The notes under the pieces: generated by a model | Databases searched by the model: none | Told to the model about the DNA's origin: nothing | Seen by the model: only the letters and a program-made list of their open reading frames with translations | Translations under genes and position numbers: made by a program | Part shown: piece after piece, positions 54,058 to 63,539 of the stretch | Layout: every line of letters begins with the position of its first letter | Numbering within the stretch: the stretch's first letter is position 1 | Origin: Eledone cirrhosa | Taxonomy: Eukaryota | NCBI GenBank assembly: GCA_964016885.1 | Contig: OZ024740.1 | Location: 50,716,001 to 50,780,000 of the forward strand | DNA: 64,000 nt | Direction of reading: 5' to 3'

Positions 54058-54392
54058 GTGCACATGGCTTAGTGGTTAGAGCATTGGCCTTGCAATCGAA
54101 AGGTTGTGAGTTCAATTCTCAGACCAGGTGATGTGTTGTTTCCTTGAGCAAGACACTTTATTTCACATTGGTCCAGTTTACTCAGCTGTAGAAATGAGAT
54201 GATAGGACTGGGGTCCGTATCATTCCACTGCAAAGTGGTCGTGGAGGTGCCACGGCAAAAAAGCACCCAGCATTCACTGTAAATGAGGTTGGTGTTAGGA
54301 AGGGCATCCAGCTGTAGAAATCAAGCCAGCATCAGTTCCCGTCCCACCCTTGCAAGCAGGGAAAAAGCGGACGTAAAATGAAATGAATGAAT
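54058..54392 (+). mobile_element. Full-length tRNA-derived SINE (family A)
   Basis: Pol III A box TGGCTTAGTGG (54065-54075), B box GAGTTCAATTC (54108-54118), CORE/V-like motif CCTTGAGCAAGACACTT, one satellite-like unit at 54226-54274, and an RTE-like 3' tail ending in an (AATG)n-like repeat. Confidence 0.92.
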
Positions 54393-54501: not shown

Positions 54502-54530
54502 AGTCAACTATTCATATATATATATATATA

Positions 54531-55172
54531 TCATCATCATCATCATCATCATCATCATGTTACGTCCGCTCTTCCCTGCTTGCAAGGGTGGGATGGGTCT
54601 TATTCAGCACAGCATCTCTCCACTCGTCATGGTCCTTCGTCATCTCCACCGTGAGCTTCAGAGTTCTGAGGTCTGTTCTCACCACTTCCACCCATGTTTT
54701 TCATGGTCTACCTCCACCACGTCTTCCCTCAACTGGCACTTCCTGGCACCTCTTCACTCATTGGCCACCCTCTATGCGCACCACACGTCCACACCACCCC
54801 AGTCTCCTCTCCCGTACACTACATTCTATCCCTCTCAGACACAGTTTCTCTCTCAACACATTCATGCTGGGTCGCCCACGCACACTGACACTGCACATCC
54901 AATGGAGCACGCCTGCCTCGTTTCTCTCCAGCCGTCGCACATCCTCCGCAGCCGCCGCTCATGCCCCACCACCATGCAGCATCGCGCCCCCCACACAGGC
55001 ATCATATAACCGGCCCCTTGCACGCAGGGAGAAACCCCTCTTCGCCAGCAGAGGAAGCAGCTCCCCAAACCTCCTCCAACCCGTCCCCACTCCAGACACC
55101 ATGGCCTCGGAACACCCCCCTCCCATGCTAATCTGATCTCTTAGGTATCGGAAGCTATCCACCACTTCTATC
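54531..55172 (-). mobile_element. 5'-truncated RTE-clade (BovB-like) non-LTR retrotransposon, decayed, with many A-to-G changes
   Basis: One minus frame translates IEVVDSFRYL..GW..F.ELLPLL..GRLYDACV..AMLHG..RRLERNE..W..V.R..GRP*KTW.EVV..DL, the post-RT C-terminus typical of RTE elements. It has three TGA stops and an (ATG)n tail. Confidence 0.88.
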
Positions 55173-55209
55173 CACCGCCTACATTTGAAAAATATATATA
55201 TATATATAT

Positions 55210-55356
55210 GTTTGGTGACATGATAAATACACCCAGTACATACTGTAAAGTGGTTGGTGATAGGAAGGGCCTCCAGCCATAAAAACCTGTCAAAAACCCA
55301 TCCAACCCATACAAGCATGGAAAAGCAGATGTAAAATAATCACGATGATGATGATA
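55210..55356 (+). mobile_element. SINE family A 3' fragment (diverged)
   Basis: CACCCAGTACATACTGTAAAGTGGTTGGTGATAGGAAGGGCCTCCAG...CCATCCAACCCATACAAGCATGGAAAAGCAGATGTAAAA...(GAT)n. Confidence 0.8.
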
Positions 55357-56461: not shown

Positions 56462-59400
56462 GAAATGAATGAGAATGAACTTGCCAACTTGAAGAATAAA
56501 ATTATGATCGAATGGATGAAAATGAAAGAATCTGACATGGGGGAACGAGACACTCTACTTAAGATCCAGAACTCCAAACAGAACCAAAAGATAATATACA
56601 AGACTAACATAATTCTCAAAAACATTATCATCACAACATCACAAACAAACTAAACATTACTGATCTAAATCATCTCTATTATGCATCGGCTAAAGTCACC
56701 ACTCACTTATGTGGAGTGAAAATGAAAAAAAAAAGGAATTCCCACAAGAAATCTACTTGGCAAGAGAACATCAATCGCCAAATAAACCTTCTCCGATCTG
56801 ACATAGAAATTTTAACAAACTACAAAGTAGGTGAACATGTTAAACAAGCTAAACTTAGAAAATTGAAAAGAAAATACAGTATAAAATCAACAAGTGACAT
56901 AGACATGCTGATAGAAATAATCAAGCAAAAAGTGTCGGCCAAAGCTGCTCTTATAAGGCGCTTTGAAAAACGATCTAGATTCTATGAGGGCAATAATATG
57001 TTCAAAAACAACCAAAGAAACTTCTACAGAAAAATTGGCAAGTCAACAATAACTGCTAAATCAATACCACCCAAGGAGGAAGTGCAAGAATTCTGGGAAA
57101 AGATCTGGGCCGAAGAAAAAGTTCATAATATACATGCCCCATGGATAGACAGACAAATGAAAGATACAGCTCACCTTGAGGAACAAACATGGGAAAATAT
57201 AACAGTTGAACAGTTACGTTTGGCTCTTAGAAAAACCAGCAAATGGAAATCCCCAGGAAAAGACAAAATACCAAATTTTTGGATAAATGCCTTCACAGAG
57301 TCTCATGAGCTGTTAGCCCAACTTTACAATGAAATAGTTAAGGAGCCAGAAAAGATACCACCATGGCTAGTTAACGGCATTACATTACTATTTCCGAAGA
57401 ATGATGAGACAAACAATCCAAAAAATTACAGACCGATAACTTGCTTGACCACAATGTATAAAATGTTAACATCAGTCCTAACTGAATATACATATGACCA
57501 CCTGATAACAAATGATCTATTTCCCAATGAGCAGAAAGGGTGTAAACGAGGCTCATATGGCTGTAAAGATCAGCTTTTGGTTAACAAAATGATACTGGAA
57601 GATTGTCATAATAGACACAAAAATCTATCAATTGCTTGGATAGATTATAAAAAAGCATTCGATAGTTTGCCACACAGTTGGATTGAAAAATGTTTAGAGA
57701 TTTTCAAAATATCTTCCATTGTCAGGAGGTTCCTGTCATTCAGTATGAAGACATGGAAAACGACACTCCTTTTGAATAGTGAAAAAATCAATGGAAGCTG
57801 GGGAGAAGTTAATATTAATTGTGGAATTTTTCAGGGTGACTCTTTATCACCGCTTTTATTCTGCATCGCACTTATACCATTAAGTAAAATGCTCAATGAA
57901 ACAAAACATGGATATAAAGTCTATGACAAAACCATTAATCACTTGTTCTACATGGATGACCTGAAACTATTTGTAAAAAATGATGAACAATTGCAAGGGC
58001 TATTATCCACTGTGGAGCAGTTCAGTGTTGACATTAAAATGGAGTATGGACTAGACAAATGCGCCAAAGCAACGTTCACCAGAGGAAAGCTGCTGAAAAG
58101 TTTAGACATTAATCTTGATTGGGAGGAATGTGATAAGAGAACTTGATCAAGAGGAAACTTACAAATATCTAGGTGTTTGTGAAGGAGACGGAATCAAGCA
58201 CTCGACAATGAGGGAAAGGATAAGGAAGGAATGTTACCGCAGAGTAAGAGCAATCTTAAGAACGGAATTGAATGCAAAGAATAGGATCGATGCCATAAAC
58301 ACGCTTGCCATACCAGTAGTAACCTACAGTTACAATGTCATCAACTGGTCAAGCACAGAGATCTGTAGGCTCGATACAAAAATTAGAAAATTCTTAACCA
58401 TGCACAGAATGCATCACCCTAAGGCAGATACAGGTAGAATATATCTTCCTAGGAAAGAAGGAGGACGTGGGTTAATCCAATTAGATATTGTGTTGAAAAC
58501 AGCAACAATTGGGTTATCTACATATCTAAGGGAATCACATGATTGGATGATCAAACTCGTTTTGAAACACGAAAGCATCAAAAGATCATACTCCATTACA
58601 AAAGATGCACAAAGATACAGTAATGGACTACAAATTTCAGAAGTTCCATTTACTGCTGAAATGAAAAACACAGAAAAAGCAAAGCAGGTAAAAGTAACTG
58701 CAAAGAAAGAACTGCTACAGAAACTGGCTAAGAAATGGCAAGAAAAGCCTCTGTATGGAAAACACCCAGAAAGAGCTAACAATCCTGATGTTGACAAAAC
58801 ATCAGTGGTTGGCATCCTCTGGACTGAAATCTGAGACTGAAGGACTGATTATATCAGCACAAGATCAGTGTCTGCCAACAAAAAATTACCAAGCCAACAT
58901 AATAAAAAATGGATGCAACCCATTATGCCGTGTATGTAAAAAACAACCAGAGACCATTGATCATATAATTTCAATGTGCAGTCCTATAGCTCCAACCGAA
59001 TACCTAAACAGGCATGACAGAGCTGCACAATACATACATTGGATAATGTGTAAGCATTTTGACCTGCCCCATCAAAAGAATTGGTGGGAGCATCAACCAC
59101 CTCCCATACTTGAAAAAGATCACATCTCAATCTTGTGGAACTTTAGCATCCAAACAGACCGAAAAATAGATGCAAATAGACCTGATATAATACTGAAGGA
59201 CTTTAAAAAGAGGGTATGCCTGCTAATTGATATGTCAGTTGTAATAGACAAGAATGTATCTATAAAAACATTTGAAAAATTGAGCAAGTATAAGGACCTG
59301 GAGATAGAAATTGGAAAAATGTGGAAATTGAGAACTAAAATAATACCAGTGGTTGTAGGCGTTCTAGGAATGATACCTAAGGGGTCTAATGATTACTTAT

Positions 59401-59640
59401 CACAAATCCCAGGAAACCCACGTATAGGAAGGAGAAATACAAAAGATAGTACTAATGGGAACTGCCCATATACTAAGGAAGATTCTGTCAATATAAGTAC
59501 ATCACAAGTCTAAACACTAAAGATGCATGTGTGTGTATGTATGTTCTTTCTTGAACATGGCGGACCTTGTTGTCTCTTGAGGTCACTGGTTGTGACTTGG
59601 TGATAACTCGTATGAACATAAAGCAAGATAAATGCAACTG
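56461..59640 (+). mobile_element. R4/Dong-type non-LTR retrotransposon (RT plus restriction-like endonuclease), 5'-truncated and frameshifted
   Basis: RT motifs (WKSPGKD, NYRPITCL, EQKG, IDYKKAFDS, GIFQGDSLSPLLF, FYMDDLK, YKYLG, GGRGL), CCHC knuckle CRVC..ETIDHIISMC, RHD and PD..D/K RLE motifs. (TAA)n at both ends, matching the known Dong target. Confidence 0.92.
56465..59496 (+). pseudogene. Disrupted RT-RLE ORF of the R4/Dong-type element
   Basis: ORF pieces 56465-56653, 56716-58146, 58115-58834 and 58755-59513 join through about four frameshifts (near 56645, 58120, 58800, 59430). The natural end EIQKIVLMGTAHILRKILSI* stops at 59496. Confidence 0.85.
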
Positions 59641-60898: not shown

Positions 60899-63508
60899 TC
60901 ACCGTTTAGGCAGAATATCTGGAGATGCCACATACCTGCGCATCATTAGCCACGGCATGCCCAGCCCTCCATGTAGAGGGTGCTGGCAGCAGATGGACCG
61001 CCTCACCAGCGGAACCTGACCCCTCCACAAGAATTTGAAGAGGAGCCGCTCCAAGATGGCGAGGCGCGAACGGGGGCAAGGGACGACAGTCAGACGGTAG
61101 TAGATGACGGACGCGATGTACGCGTTCGCCACCTCCGCCCGACGTTTCAGTGATAGCTTCATCCCAGCCCATTTCTGGGTGAGACTGACTACCCTGCCCG
61201 TCACCTCGTCCCAATTCTTATCCTCCTGGAGGTCTGGCCCGAACCAAACCCCTAGCAACTTTACCGGTCCGTCCGTCCAGCGCCTAACGACGCTGTTGGA
61301 CGGCATGGACTTGCCTCTCCAGGTGCCGAGTTGCCAGCCCACTGACTTTTCCGGGTTAAGTTTTGCTCCCGTCAACCTTTCATATTCCTCCAATAAGTTG
61401 CTGACCACCTCTATTTCTGAGGTGTCCGACACCATCACGGTGATGTCGTCTGCATAAGCCGACACAGCCTTTCCGCATCCCGGTTCGAGCGGGATGCCCT
61501 GCAACAGCTTCAGCTTCCGCAGTAAAGGCTCGAGAGTCAACACGTACAGAAGGGAGGAGAGAAGGCACCCTTGACGGACCGATCGGGAGACCTGAAACGG
61601 TTCCGACAGGTGGCCATTAATTTTGACCATCGAGCAGGTGCTGCTGTGCATTGCAGCGATCCAGCTTCTGAAGATGGGACCAAAGCCAGCCGTCTTGAGG
61701 ACAGCCTCCAGGTACCGATGGTCGACCCTATCGAATGCTTTCGATTGATCTAAATTGATCAGAGCCCCACCAAAGCCAGGTTTACACCCTACCCTCTCTA
61801 TGATGTATCGCATTAGGTGGAGGTTGTCGTGTATGGACCTGGTTGGGATTGCGCAAGTTTGCGTCTCCCCAACCAAATCCCCGACGACAAGCGCCAACCT
61901 CTTCGCTAACACCCTGGCCAAAATCTTAAACTCTGTGTTGAGCAGAGTTATGGGCCTGAAATTGTCTAATGTGTCCCTCTTGTTCTCGTCTTTCCTTATC
62001 AGCGTCACTACGCCCTGGCTCACAGAACTGGGAATACTCCCGTTTTGCTGCCAGTTGCAGTAGAGGGCTTCGAGGAGATTGGAGAACAAGTCTGGCATAT
62101 TTACGTAAAGCTCATAGGGCAGACCATCCAAACCAGGTGACTTGCACCTCATGTAGCCTACAAGGGCATCCTGAATCTCGGCTGAAGTAATTGGCCTTTC
62201 GCAGCGCCCAGCATCAGCCGTCGAGAGTTGCGGCAAGCCATCGAGGTAGGGACTGAAGTCCGCCACCATCTCTGACCCGCCACTTCCCCCGAACAACCGA
62301 GCAAAATGTTGGCGAAAGGCCTCACACATCCTCTTGGAATCGTTCAGCTCGTGCCCATCTCGGTCTGTCAAAGACCGAATCGTGGTTTTATTACCACGCT
62401 GCGCCTCTGCCACGTGGGCCCATCGAACAGCTTTGGTTCCCTCGTTTCTCAGAGCATGCGCCTTAGCTCTGACAATGCAACCTTCGTGTTTCGCATTGAA
62501 GAAATGGTCTAATGCCATTCTCGCCGCTAGCACATCAGTTGCAATGCCACTACCAATAGCCTCGTCTAACTTATCTACCAACTCCCCCTCCTTTCTATTT
62601 TTCTCTAATGCTACTTCTTTGCTAAACTCTATCGACATTACTCTAATCTCTCTTTTGAGAGCCCCCCACAATCTATTGTTGACGACACCCCCTGTCAACT
62701 TTTTCTTAACTAAATTGTTGACCTGGTCCCCGTAAGCCTTACGTGCCGTAAATGACATGTTTAGCTTCCAGTAACCAGGTCCTAACCTACGCATCTTATC
62801 TAGGTCGACCATACAGATCACAAACTTGTGATCTGAATAGGCGACCATTTCAAAACGTGGACAGCTTACACTATTTCTGTCTATTTTCCTAATGAATATC
62901 CTGTCTATATACGATCTAGATGACCCTATGAGGTTAGCCCAGGTCCACACTGGCGCATTAGGGAAATCTAGTCGGTACCTGTCAGACAGTTGGAACTGGC
63001 TGATCAGGTTCTTGAGGCTTTTGTACCCCCCGCTCCTATCGGATACTCCCACACAGTCCCAGCGTGCGTCTAAGATGCCGTTACAGTCCCCCGCTAACAG
63101 TAAAGGGCGAGACGTACCCAGAAAGGCTTCCAGGCGTCTAAAGAAGTCCAGCCGTCCTGCCCCAGTAGGAGCATAGACGGCCACCAGTCTAAAGGCACCA
63201 CTTTCATTATTGTTCGCGTCCAGGACCACCAACTTCCCGTCCGGGTCCCGGAAGATCGATCTTACCTCGAGATCCAGGCCTTTCCTAAACAGCACTGCCA
63301 CCCCGCCTCCCATTCCCGGCCGGCTAACAGATGCAAAGATCTGATAGTCGTCGAAAATGGGGGCTAGTGCGCGCGTGTCAGAAATCCTGGTCTCGTTGAC
63401 TGCAATTACATCCATTTCTATAGACCTGAGGTCGTTGAGCAGGTGACCCTGCTTCCAGGACGATCCCAGGCCTCGAACATTTAAACATCCTACTCTTAAT
63501 ACGGCCAT
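60899..63508 (-). CDS. Tx1-like ORF2: AP endonuclease plus reverse transcriptase (869 aa open; C-terminus continues after frameshifts)
   Basis: APE motifs LNVRGL, NET, VYAP, GDCN, IDRIF, SDH. RT motifs KSPGLDG, FRPITLLN, KAFD, VRQG, YADD, GGLG. Frameshifts near 60930 and at the poly-C run near 60560. CPRCAQSDETVLHALVQC knuckle downstream (~60455-60508). Confidence 0.88.
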   Translation of the reverse strand: MAVLRVGCLNVRGLGSSWKQGHLLNDLRSIEMDVIAVNETRISDTRALAPIFDDYQIFASVSRPGMGGGVAVLFRKGLDLEVRSIFRDPDGKLVVLDANNNESGAFRLVAVYAPTGAGRLDFFRRLEAFLGTSRPLLLAGDCNGILDARWDCVGVSDRSGGYKSLKNLISQFQLSDRYRLDFPNAPVWTWANLIGSSRSYIDRIFIRKIDRNSVSCPRFEMVAYSDHKFVICMVDLDKMRRLGPGYWKLNMSFTARKAYGDQVNNLVKKKLTGGVVNNRLWGALKREIRVMSIEFSKEVALEKNRKEGELVDKLDEAIGSGIATDVLAARMALDHFFNAKHEGCIVRAKAHALRNEGTKAVRWAHVAEAQRGNKTTIRSLTDRDGHELNDSKRMCEAFRQHFARLFGGSGGSEMVADFSPYLDGLPQLSTADAGRCERPITSAEIQDALVGYMRCKSPGLDGLPYELYVNMPDLFSNLLEALYCNWQQNGSIPSSVSQGVVTLIRKDENKRDTLDNFRPITLLNTEFKILARVLAKRLALVVGDLVGETQTCAIPTRSIHDNLHLMRYIIERVGCKPGFGGALINLDQSKAFDRVDHRYLEAVLKTAGFGPIFRSWIAAMHSSTCSMVKINGHLSEPFQVSRSVRQGCLLSSLLYVLTLEPLLRKLKLLQGIPLEPGCGKAVSAYADDITVMVSDTSEIEVVSNLLEEYERLTGAKLNPEKSVGWQLGTWRGKSMPSNSVVRRWTDGPVKLLGVWFGPDLQEDKNWDEVTGRVVSLTQKWAGMKLSLKRRAEVANAYIASVIYYRLTVVPCPRSRLAILERLLFKFLWRGQVPLVRRSICCQHPLHGGLGMPWLMMRRYVASPDILPKR

Positions 63509-63539
63509 GTTGGCAGGTTAAACAGAGAGAGAGGAAGGT

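Follow-up and report, generated by a model that had tools for sequence, protein, structure and literature searches.

Can the editing of a retrotransposon RNA be written back into the genome as a heritable change? The question is raised by a truncated retrotransposon copy of Eledone cirrhosa that lies in the window analysed here, the whole stretch of 64,000 nucleotides at positions 50,716,001 to 50,780,000 of contig OZ024740.1. The original prediction was that a hyper-edited LINE RNA had been reverse-transcribed and inserted; this claim is supported by the recurrence of such copies, by the sense polarity of their changes, by clean flanks and by an ADAR2-like sequence context.

The window copy and its LINE family

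The copy is 89-90% identical to 39 other matches (best 40 scored of 6467 candidates in the 3.0 Gb genome), and its parts are given in Table 1. The span 54560..55172 had been assigned to it; the element is indeed found there, and the copy begins at about 55193, around 20 bases 5' of the claimed end. The (TA)n tracts at its two junctions are compatible with a target-site duplication, of undefinable exact length, inside a (TA)n run. Elsewhere in the window, a 50-kb satellite (positions 1-50125) consists of ~1046 copies of a 48-base unit with 92% matches; the unit has a ~83% match to a portion of the SINE-like piece (55213-55254), and the array may, by sequence resemblance, be SINE-derived. An open frame of 872 aa on the minus strand (60902-63517) has a start that we take to resemble the endonuclease of another LINE, and frames of 512 and 271 aa on the plus strand (56608-59510) are presumably fragments of a third non-LTR element.

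Table 1. Features of the LINE copy and its surroundings (window coordinates)
Feature	Position	Strand	Remarks
5'-truncated LINE copy (young, single-ORF, putatively RTE-type)	54531..55193	-	final ~660 nt, covering the C-terminal part of the ORF, a short 3' UTR and the tail
Private sense-strand A>G zone	54715..55100	-	38 sites: 32 non-synonymous, 6 synonymous
Densest A>G patch of the copy	54931..55100	-	from 50-base bin counts
Element 3' end, without private A>G	54559..54714	-	G at 54571 belongs to subfamily variation
Premature stop	54959..54961	-	from G>A
(ATG)n LINE tail	54531..54558	-	from sequence
(TA)n tract, 5' junction	55194..55209	.	junction analysis
(TA)n tract, 3' junction	54514..54530	.	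junction analysis
SINE-like flanking piece, opposite orientation	55223..55355	+	resembles LINE tail and 5' region; A>G excess absent
Second SINE-like flanking piece, opposite orientation	54264..54381	+	LINE-type tail; A>G excess absent

A near-intact relative, L155 (3069-6140), has a single 1024-aa frame with endonuclease and reverse transcriptase (RT) domains (PF03372/PF14529 and PF00078), and no second long coding frame was seen in it. The same domain layout occurs in 931 relatives, and no clade name appears among the 120 listed. LINEs of the RTE clade encode AP endonuclease and RT in one ORF of about 1000-1100 aa, have a short 3' UTR and a simple-repeat tail and are commonly 5'-truncated, traits that the family shares; we apply the label RTE provisionally, from the single-ORF layout and from motifs typical of the clade. 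The intact form of a 23-base family motif occurs 3757 times in the genome. Behind the RT, L155 also has a PHD-like finger (residues 757-800), which is common to many relatives.

As a reference, the majority of 29 genomic sister copies was taken, and the window copy was compared with it over 54560-55172. Against this majority the copy has A>G at 42/172 A, T>C at 3/121 T, G>A at 13/221 G and C>T at 2/99 C. When only private changes are counted, defined as those found in <=2 of the 29 sister copies, A>G amounts to 38/168 and T>C to 1/119 (Fisher p=7.4e-9), with private G>A at 7/219 G. The tabulation against the family thus gives the large sense-strand excess of A>G that was anticipated, and the near equality of A>G and T>C that would have spoken against it is absent. 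In the bins over 54931-55130, 24 of the 46 A are changed, and 19 of the 26 that lack a 5' G.

All five changes in RTE protein motifs that had been attributed to A>G are confirmed at their coordinates, and the 29-copy majority spells the expected residues at those positions, so that the motif expectation now rests on the family sequence. Two details of the prediction do not hold. The G at 54571 in the tail had been read as an edit; it is common to 9/29 copies and is, together with 55118 (5/29), 54863 (10/29) and 54728 (7/29), one of the 4/42 A>G differences from the majority that are shared subfamily variants. It is a G>A at 54959, and not an A>G, that creates the stop after 'HGGGA'; this is ordinary decay, outside the A>G burst.

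Recurrence of A>G bursts across the family

The search for similar clusters in further family copies, proposed together with the prediction, yielded eight more copies on other contigs with separate sense-strand A>G bursts. L063 has 75 private A>G changes, 0 T>C and 2 others, with no A>C or A>T; the A>G/T>C counts are 52/0 in L034, 39/2 in L194, 34/1 in L045, 27/8 in L144, 19/7 in L033, 19/2 in L224 and 26/2 in one arm of L227. The nine edited copies are the seven that pass a cluster threshold of >=8 changes of one type per 200 nt, plus L224 and the L227 arm. They are spread over seven contigs; five are in the + and four in the - orientation of the assembly, and A>G always falls on the sense strand of the element. 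They differ in subfamily and age, L033 and L144 being older copies with several T>C besides A>G. Weak cases were kept outside the nine, namely (A>G/T>C) L053 with 8/3, L035 with 14/3, L061 with 9/0 and the short arm of L223 with 7/1 and 7 G>A.

Most edited copies came from A>G-biased queries, and so did many of the 202 distinct copies among which the threshold gave seven A>G clusters, none of T>C, one of G>A and none of C>T; the lone copy with the G>A cluster (1/202) is generally diverged. L145, taken up as a possible T>C-burst copy (7 T>C/200 nt), was rejected on the same ground, since its overall tally includes 24 transversions besides G>A at 21 and C>T at 11 sites. Mirror motifs were matched over the whole genome, with two TA steps turned either into TG (sense A>G) or into CA (sense T>C), and gave 3 against 0 and 5 against 0 matches; the motif sites had been picked where known copies were edited, and four matches were new (L063, L224, the L227 arm and a weak L223 arm). 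A position-ordered sample, the first 90 of 100 listed intact-motif copies, all C1, included 1 hypermutated copy (95% interval 0.03-6%) and 0 comparable T>C clusters. Blind evidence only comes to 5 A>G against 0 T>C copies (one-sided p ~0.03). Combining the 1/90 figure with the rates at which the motifs capture edited copies, we estimate that hypermutated copies number ~10-50, or ~0.2-1% of the family.

These copies do not appear to descend from one edited element. A query with the densest part of the window copy found no copy above 87% (best 40 scored of 314), and among 28 further loci that it returned, two had bursts of their own, of 45 A>G/0 T>C and of 34/1, and one more had a lesser burst. 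The middle part of L063 used as a query gave 1 new edited copy, and its 3' edited part gave none among 29 new loci. No daughter copies of the window copy were seen among the best 40 candidates scored per DNA search, and an edited 21-mer from it has a single exact match in the 3.0 Gb. The hypermutated copies have few sites in common, their overlap is not nested and they carry letters of different subfamilies; with the unique 21-mer, this rules out a single edited source as common ancestor. Nor are the G states a subfamily consensus, the sharing being sparse.

The same observations bear on an origin in GC-biased gene conversion, in ordinary drift towards GC or in a G-rich subfamily that escaped recognition, readings in which the G letters would reflect base composition or common descent. 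To their credit stand the 4/42 shared variants and a sharing of sites among edited copies that exceeds a context-matched null (110 vs 72+/-8), an excess that is inflated by the way in which the copies were found. On the other side, T>C is at background level in the window copy and in unedited copies A>G has a background of 3.5-4.9 per 1000 and depends little on context; together with the unique 21-mer and the non-nested sharing across subfamilies, these data refute such an origin, to which we give practically no weight.

L063, the most heavily edited copy, has a further feature (1345-1385, C22): 130 bases are missing from its interior, and a short stretch is duplicated where the two ends meet, as after an RT template jump.

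Timing, sequence context and the probable enzyme

The sequences around the edited copies do not share the burst. Both flanks of the window copy together have A>G at 6/285 A and T>C at 4/312 T, and in the flanking repeats of eight copies the counts are 25/1003 A and 28/974 T; L223 and L227 were left out of the flank tally, their flanks holding a second, inverted family copy. A scan of 56,096 scored columns of non-RTE repeats in the flanks, a small sample, gave 5 matches, all microsatellite or tandem-repeat artefacts, and no edited SINE. At L227 (832-1792, C28) a head-to-head pair of 5'-truncated copies, separated by 2 bases and each ending in a tail of its own, looks like two RNAs primed on opposite strands of one target. 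A>G and T>C number 26 and 2 in one arm, and 3 and 2 in the other. Editing of a hairpin at the locus would mark both arms, so that the change of a single arm argues for an origin in the template; taken with the symmetric flanks, it indicates that the A>G changes likely entered with the RNA template.

The DNA could in principle also have been changed after insertion: ADAR might have worked on the DNA strand of an RNA:DNA hybrid, an edited host transcript might have served as the template for conversion, or a TpA-type mutator might have acted. According to the available part of a review (PMC12925331), ADARs are able to deaminate dA in model DNA:RNA hybrids, and TA sites are the most changed in our copies. 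Such routes nevertheless predict both polarities and spill-over into the surroundings, whereas T>C clusters number 0/202, the flanks are symmetric and the second arm of the perfect hairpin arrangement at L227 is untouched. The both-strand signature of a TpA-type mutator was likewise absent in the mirror motifs (double TA>CA 0 and 0, double TA>TG 3 and 5), many edits fall outside TA (AAG 38/110) and a very young copy, L063, already has 75 changes. We consider post-insertion change very unlikely.

The bursts might also be errors of assembly or sequencing, for instance from base-calling bias or from polishing with hyper-edited RNA reads. Among the sequencing runs, the best share of edited-copy words was 0.14 of 65 and no run clearly contains the copy; no RNA run was among those listed as carrying it. 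The X1 and X3 contigs have a 589-base piece of the flank with zero differences, which indicates that X1 and X3 are from the same species. Neither these contigs nor the RAD reads of other samples (X18, X19) gave a piece across the edited zone, where sister copies dominate. At 54875-54876 the window letters are present at a depth of 5/60 in X1 and 3/123 in X3, close to the flank's single-copy depth, a weak sign that sister copies swamp; at 54781 the depth is zero in both. An artefact would agree with the lack of a spanning piece in the genomic runs, and systematic A/G errors in Sanger traces did enter older references, as far as the accessible text of PMC2873906 goes. It is, however, at odds with a change that tracks the strand of the element on both assembly strands and stops at the element ends; polishing with edited host RNA would affect both orientations. 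Polarity, the enzyme-like context and recurrence on seven contigs make an artefact unlikely, to the point that we hold it highly improbable, and the window letters in X1 and X3 point weakly the same way.

The context of the changes resembles that of a deaminase. The sparing of A with a 5' G, noted for the window copy from the start, is borne out, 10/79 such sites being changed against 28/83 others (p=0.0016), and 9 of the 13 A that survive in 55031-55130 are preceded by G; taken by itself, the window copy shows no significant 3'-G effect (18/66 vs 20/96, p=0.35). In the patches of nine copies, A>G occurs after T at 91/272, after A at 107/388, after C at 30/292 and after G at 63/629 (p=1e-22), that is, at rates of 0.33, 0.28, 0.10 and 0.10, and before G at 145/610 (0.24) compared with 12-16% for the other 3' neighbours (p=1e-4). 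The top triplets in seven copies are TAG (48/118, 41%) and AAG (38/110), and the lowest are GAA and GAT at 0.06. Pooled, the preference is T>A>C=G on the 5' side and G on the 3' side, which is ADAR2-like, TAG and AAG being given as ADAR2 motifs in the consulted portion of PMC3197674.

The changes are also clustered. Median A>G gaps are below random in 7/7 copies, with <=1/1000 shuffles equally short (5 in the window copy, 12.5 expected), and the patches are 30-150 nt long with clean stretches between them. Patch positions differ from copy to copy, with 238 near pairs where 304+/-18 would be expected. In the 125 bases before the tail A>G is depleted (11/328 vs 184/1179 A in nine copies), a comparison whose boundary was set post hoc, whose sites are non-independent within a copy and whose queries favoured the upstream part. 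Local pairing gave no prediction of the edits (rho -0.07, p=0.10), and an internal hairpin was rejected as the duplex substrate, the longest inverted repeat in the element being 24 nt at 71%. At L156:4150-4670, immediately 5' of a family copy that is unedited, lies a near-perfect inverted repeat of 520 bases (94%), a possible source of duplex RNA.

The main rival places the change in the second strand, where an error-prone polymerase of the Pol eta/iota type, or an RT with a skewed dNTP pool, would put G opposite template T. It accounts for A>G on the sense strand only, for confinement to the insert, for the one-arm pattern at L227 and for the missing duplex partner. The motif of Pol eta is WA, which the 5' T/A preference resembles. 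Polymerases of this type nonetheless produce many other error types, and the purity is too high for them (75 A>G without A>C, A>T or T>C in L063); the 41% rate at TAG in patches and the 3'-G preference also speak against them, and a uniform dNTP pool imbalance does not fit patches of 30-150 nt between clean stretches. This rival we regard as improbable. Editing of the LINE RNA by an ADAR, probably of the ADAR2 type, with subsequent fixation of inosines as G by reverse transcription, is by contrast quite probable.

Matches to A_deamin (PF02137) are found at four genomic places, with the catalytic motifs in one exon; dsRNA-binding domains were not found within the 10-kb stretches examined. At L228:1246-2067 (C6) an ADAR2-like deaminase domain is spread over two large exons. 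A serine lies in the loop of the C6 deaminase exon that we take to be the equivalent of the one with ADAR2 S486 (human numbering). In the text available of PMC5625713, 5'-G depletion was found in every species studied, and invertebrate hyper-editing, that of octopus included, prefers a 3' A and not a 3' G, a preference tied to a glycine that replaces ADAR2 S486, in one octopus ADAR. The 3'-G preference seen here conflicts with these bulk invertebrate data, and an ADAR2-type enzyme would reconcile them.

Mechanism, known systems and significance

LINE insertion proceeds by target-primed reverse transcription of the sense RNA, and inosine templates C in reverse transcription. In the mechanism that we favour, sense LINE RNA would pair with one of the thousands of copies, in antisense or inverted form, and an ADAR, probably of the ADAR2 type, would deaminate its adenosines within the duplex. 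Given that 32 of the 38 edits of the window copy are missense, editing presumably took place after translation, or else the RNA was mobilised in trans. The RT of the element would likely then read inosine as G during target-primed insertion, leaving a truncated, fixed copy in DNA that was likely inherited. The sparing of the 3' end could reflect its binding by the RT, or a need of the RT for it. More tentatively, and on balance doubtfully, the ADAR2-type enzyme might edit LINE RNA inside the germline retrotransposition particle, once the RT exists and has gripped the 3' end, so that insertions would be born mutated and editing would act as a heritable strand-specific mutator, the visible 0.2-1% being the survivors of a larger edited pool. 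A putative anti-transposon role of the editing would, among inserted copies, touch only that small share; losses before insertion are invisible in DNA.

Several known systems resemble the LINE bursts in part. The closest analogy on the DNA side is APOBEC 'DNA editing' of genomic LTR retrotransposons, which in the available portion of Knisbacher and Levanon (PMC4866542) is G>A through cDNA deamination and confined to vertebrates, other cluster types being negligible and invertebrates at noise level in their LTR screen. As in the LINE bursts, deaminase-type changes are clustered and sense-biased and become fixed when a mutated intermediate still inserts; unlike them, the bursts described here are A>G, in a non-LTR element and with an ADAR-like context. 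The sense G>A expected of an APOBEC was not found, either in the window copy (7/219 G) or among the 202 copies, one of which has a G>A cluster. ADAR-type A>G hypermutation is known from avian retroviruses (Rous-associated virus as well as avian leukosis virus), as the accessible part of the review PMC12925331 relates, and there too the bursts in a retroelement become visible in DNA after reverse transcription. Those viruses are exogenous, act in infected cells and have inverted repeats or U3 as targets, whereas an endogenous LINE is concerned here, with many events fixed in an assembly.

On the RNA side, ADAR hyper-editing of repeat RNA is reported in metazoans, cephalopods included, in the sections seen of PMC5625713 and PMC9068888. 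It shares with the LINE bursts the A>G clusters, the 5'-G depletion and the TAG and AAG motifs of ADAR2 (PMC5625713, PMC9068888 and PMC3197674, in the same sections); it is known from RNA only and has a 3' A in the invertebrate bulk, in contrast to bursts that are in DNA, sense-only and with a 3' G. For human L1, restriction by ADAR1 is described as editing-independent, with zero edits in >2.5 kb of L1 RNA in the one direct test on L1 (PMC5224506, in part); ADAR associates there with the LINE ribonucleoprotein, whereas here the editing itself is the footprint. Octopus RTE-2_OV, as presented in the available text of PMC9115989, has a single ORF of ~1100 aa with endonuclease, RT and zinc finger and was recently active; the present family is likened to it by description, not sequence, through the single ORF with endonuclease and RT, and differs in its PHD-like match after the RT. 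The accessible portions of PMC9115989 and PMC5974252 describe no such genomic editing footprint. A 2016 review (PMC4982230, in part) called the mutation of retrotransposons by ADAR logical but undetermined, and a literature search by title and abstract opening, excluding most subscription papers, found no report of ADAR-type hypermutated LINE or SINE copies fixed in a genome.

The LINE bursts would amount to a route from RNA editing to heritable DNA change. A young family of >3757 copies provides its own internal reference, so that assemblies by themselves suffice to read rate, context, timing and enzyme and to compare them between animals, and the edited copies would be dated records of ADAR activity in the germline or early embryo. 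They also make copies seem far older than they are, as in L063 with its 75 changes against 2 others. If editing does take place in the germline particle, it would be the RNA-side twin of APOBEC editing, operating in an invertebrate.
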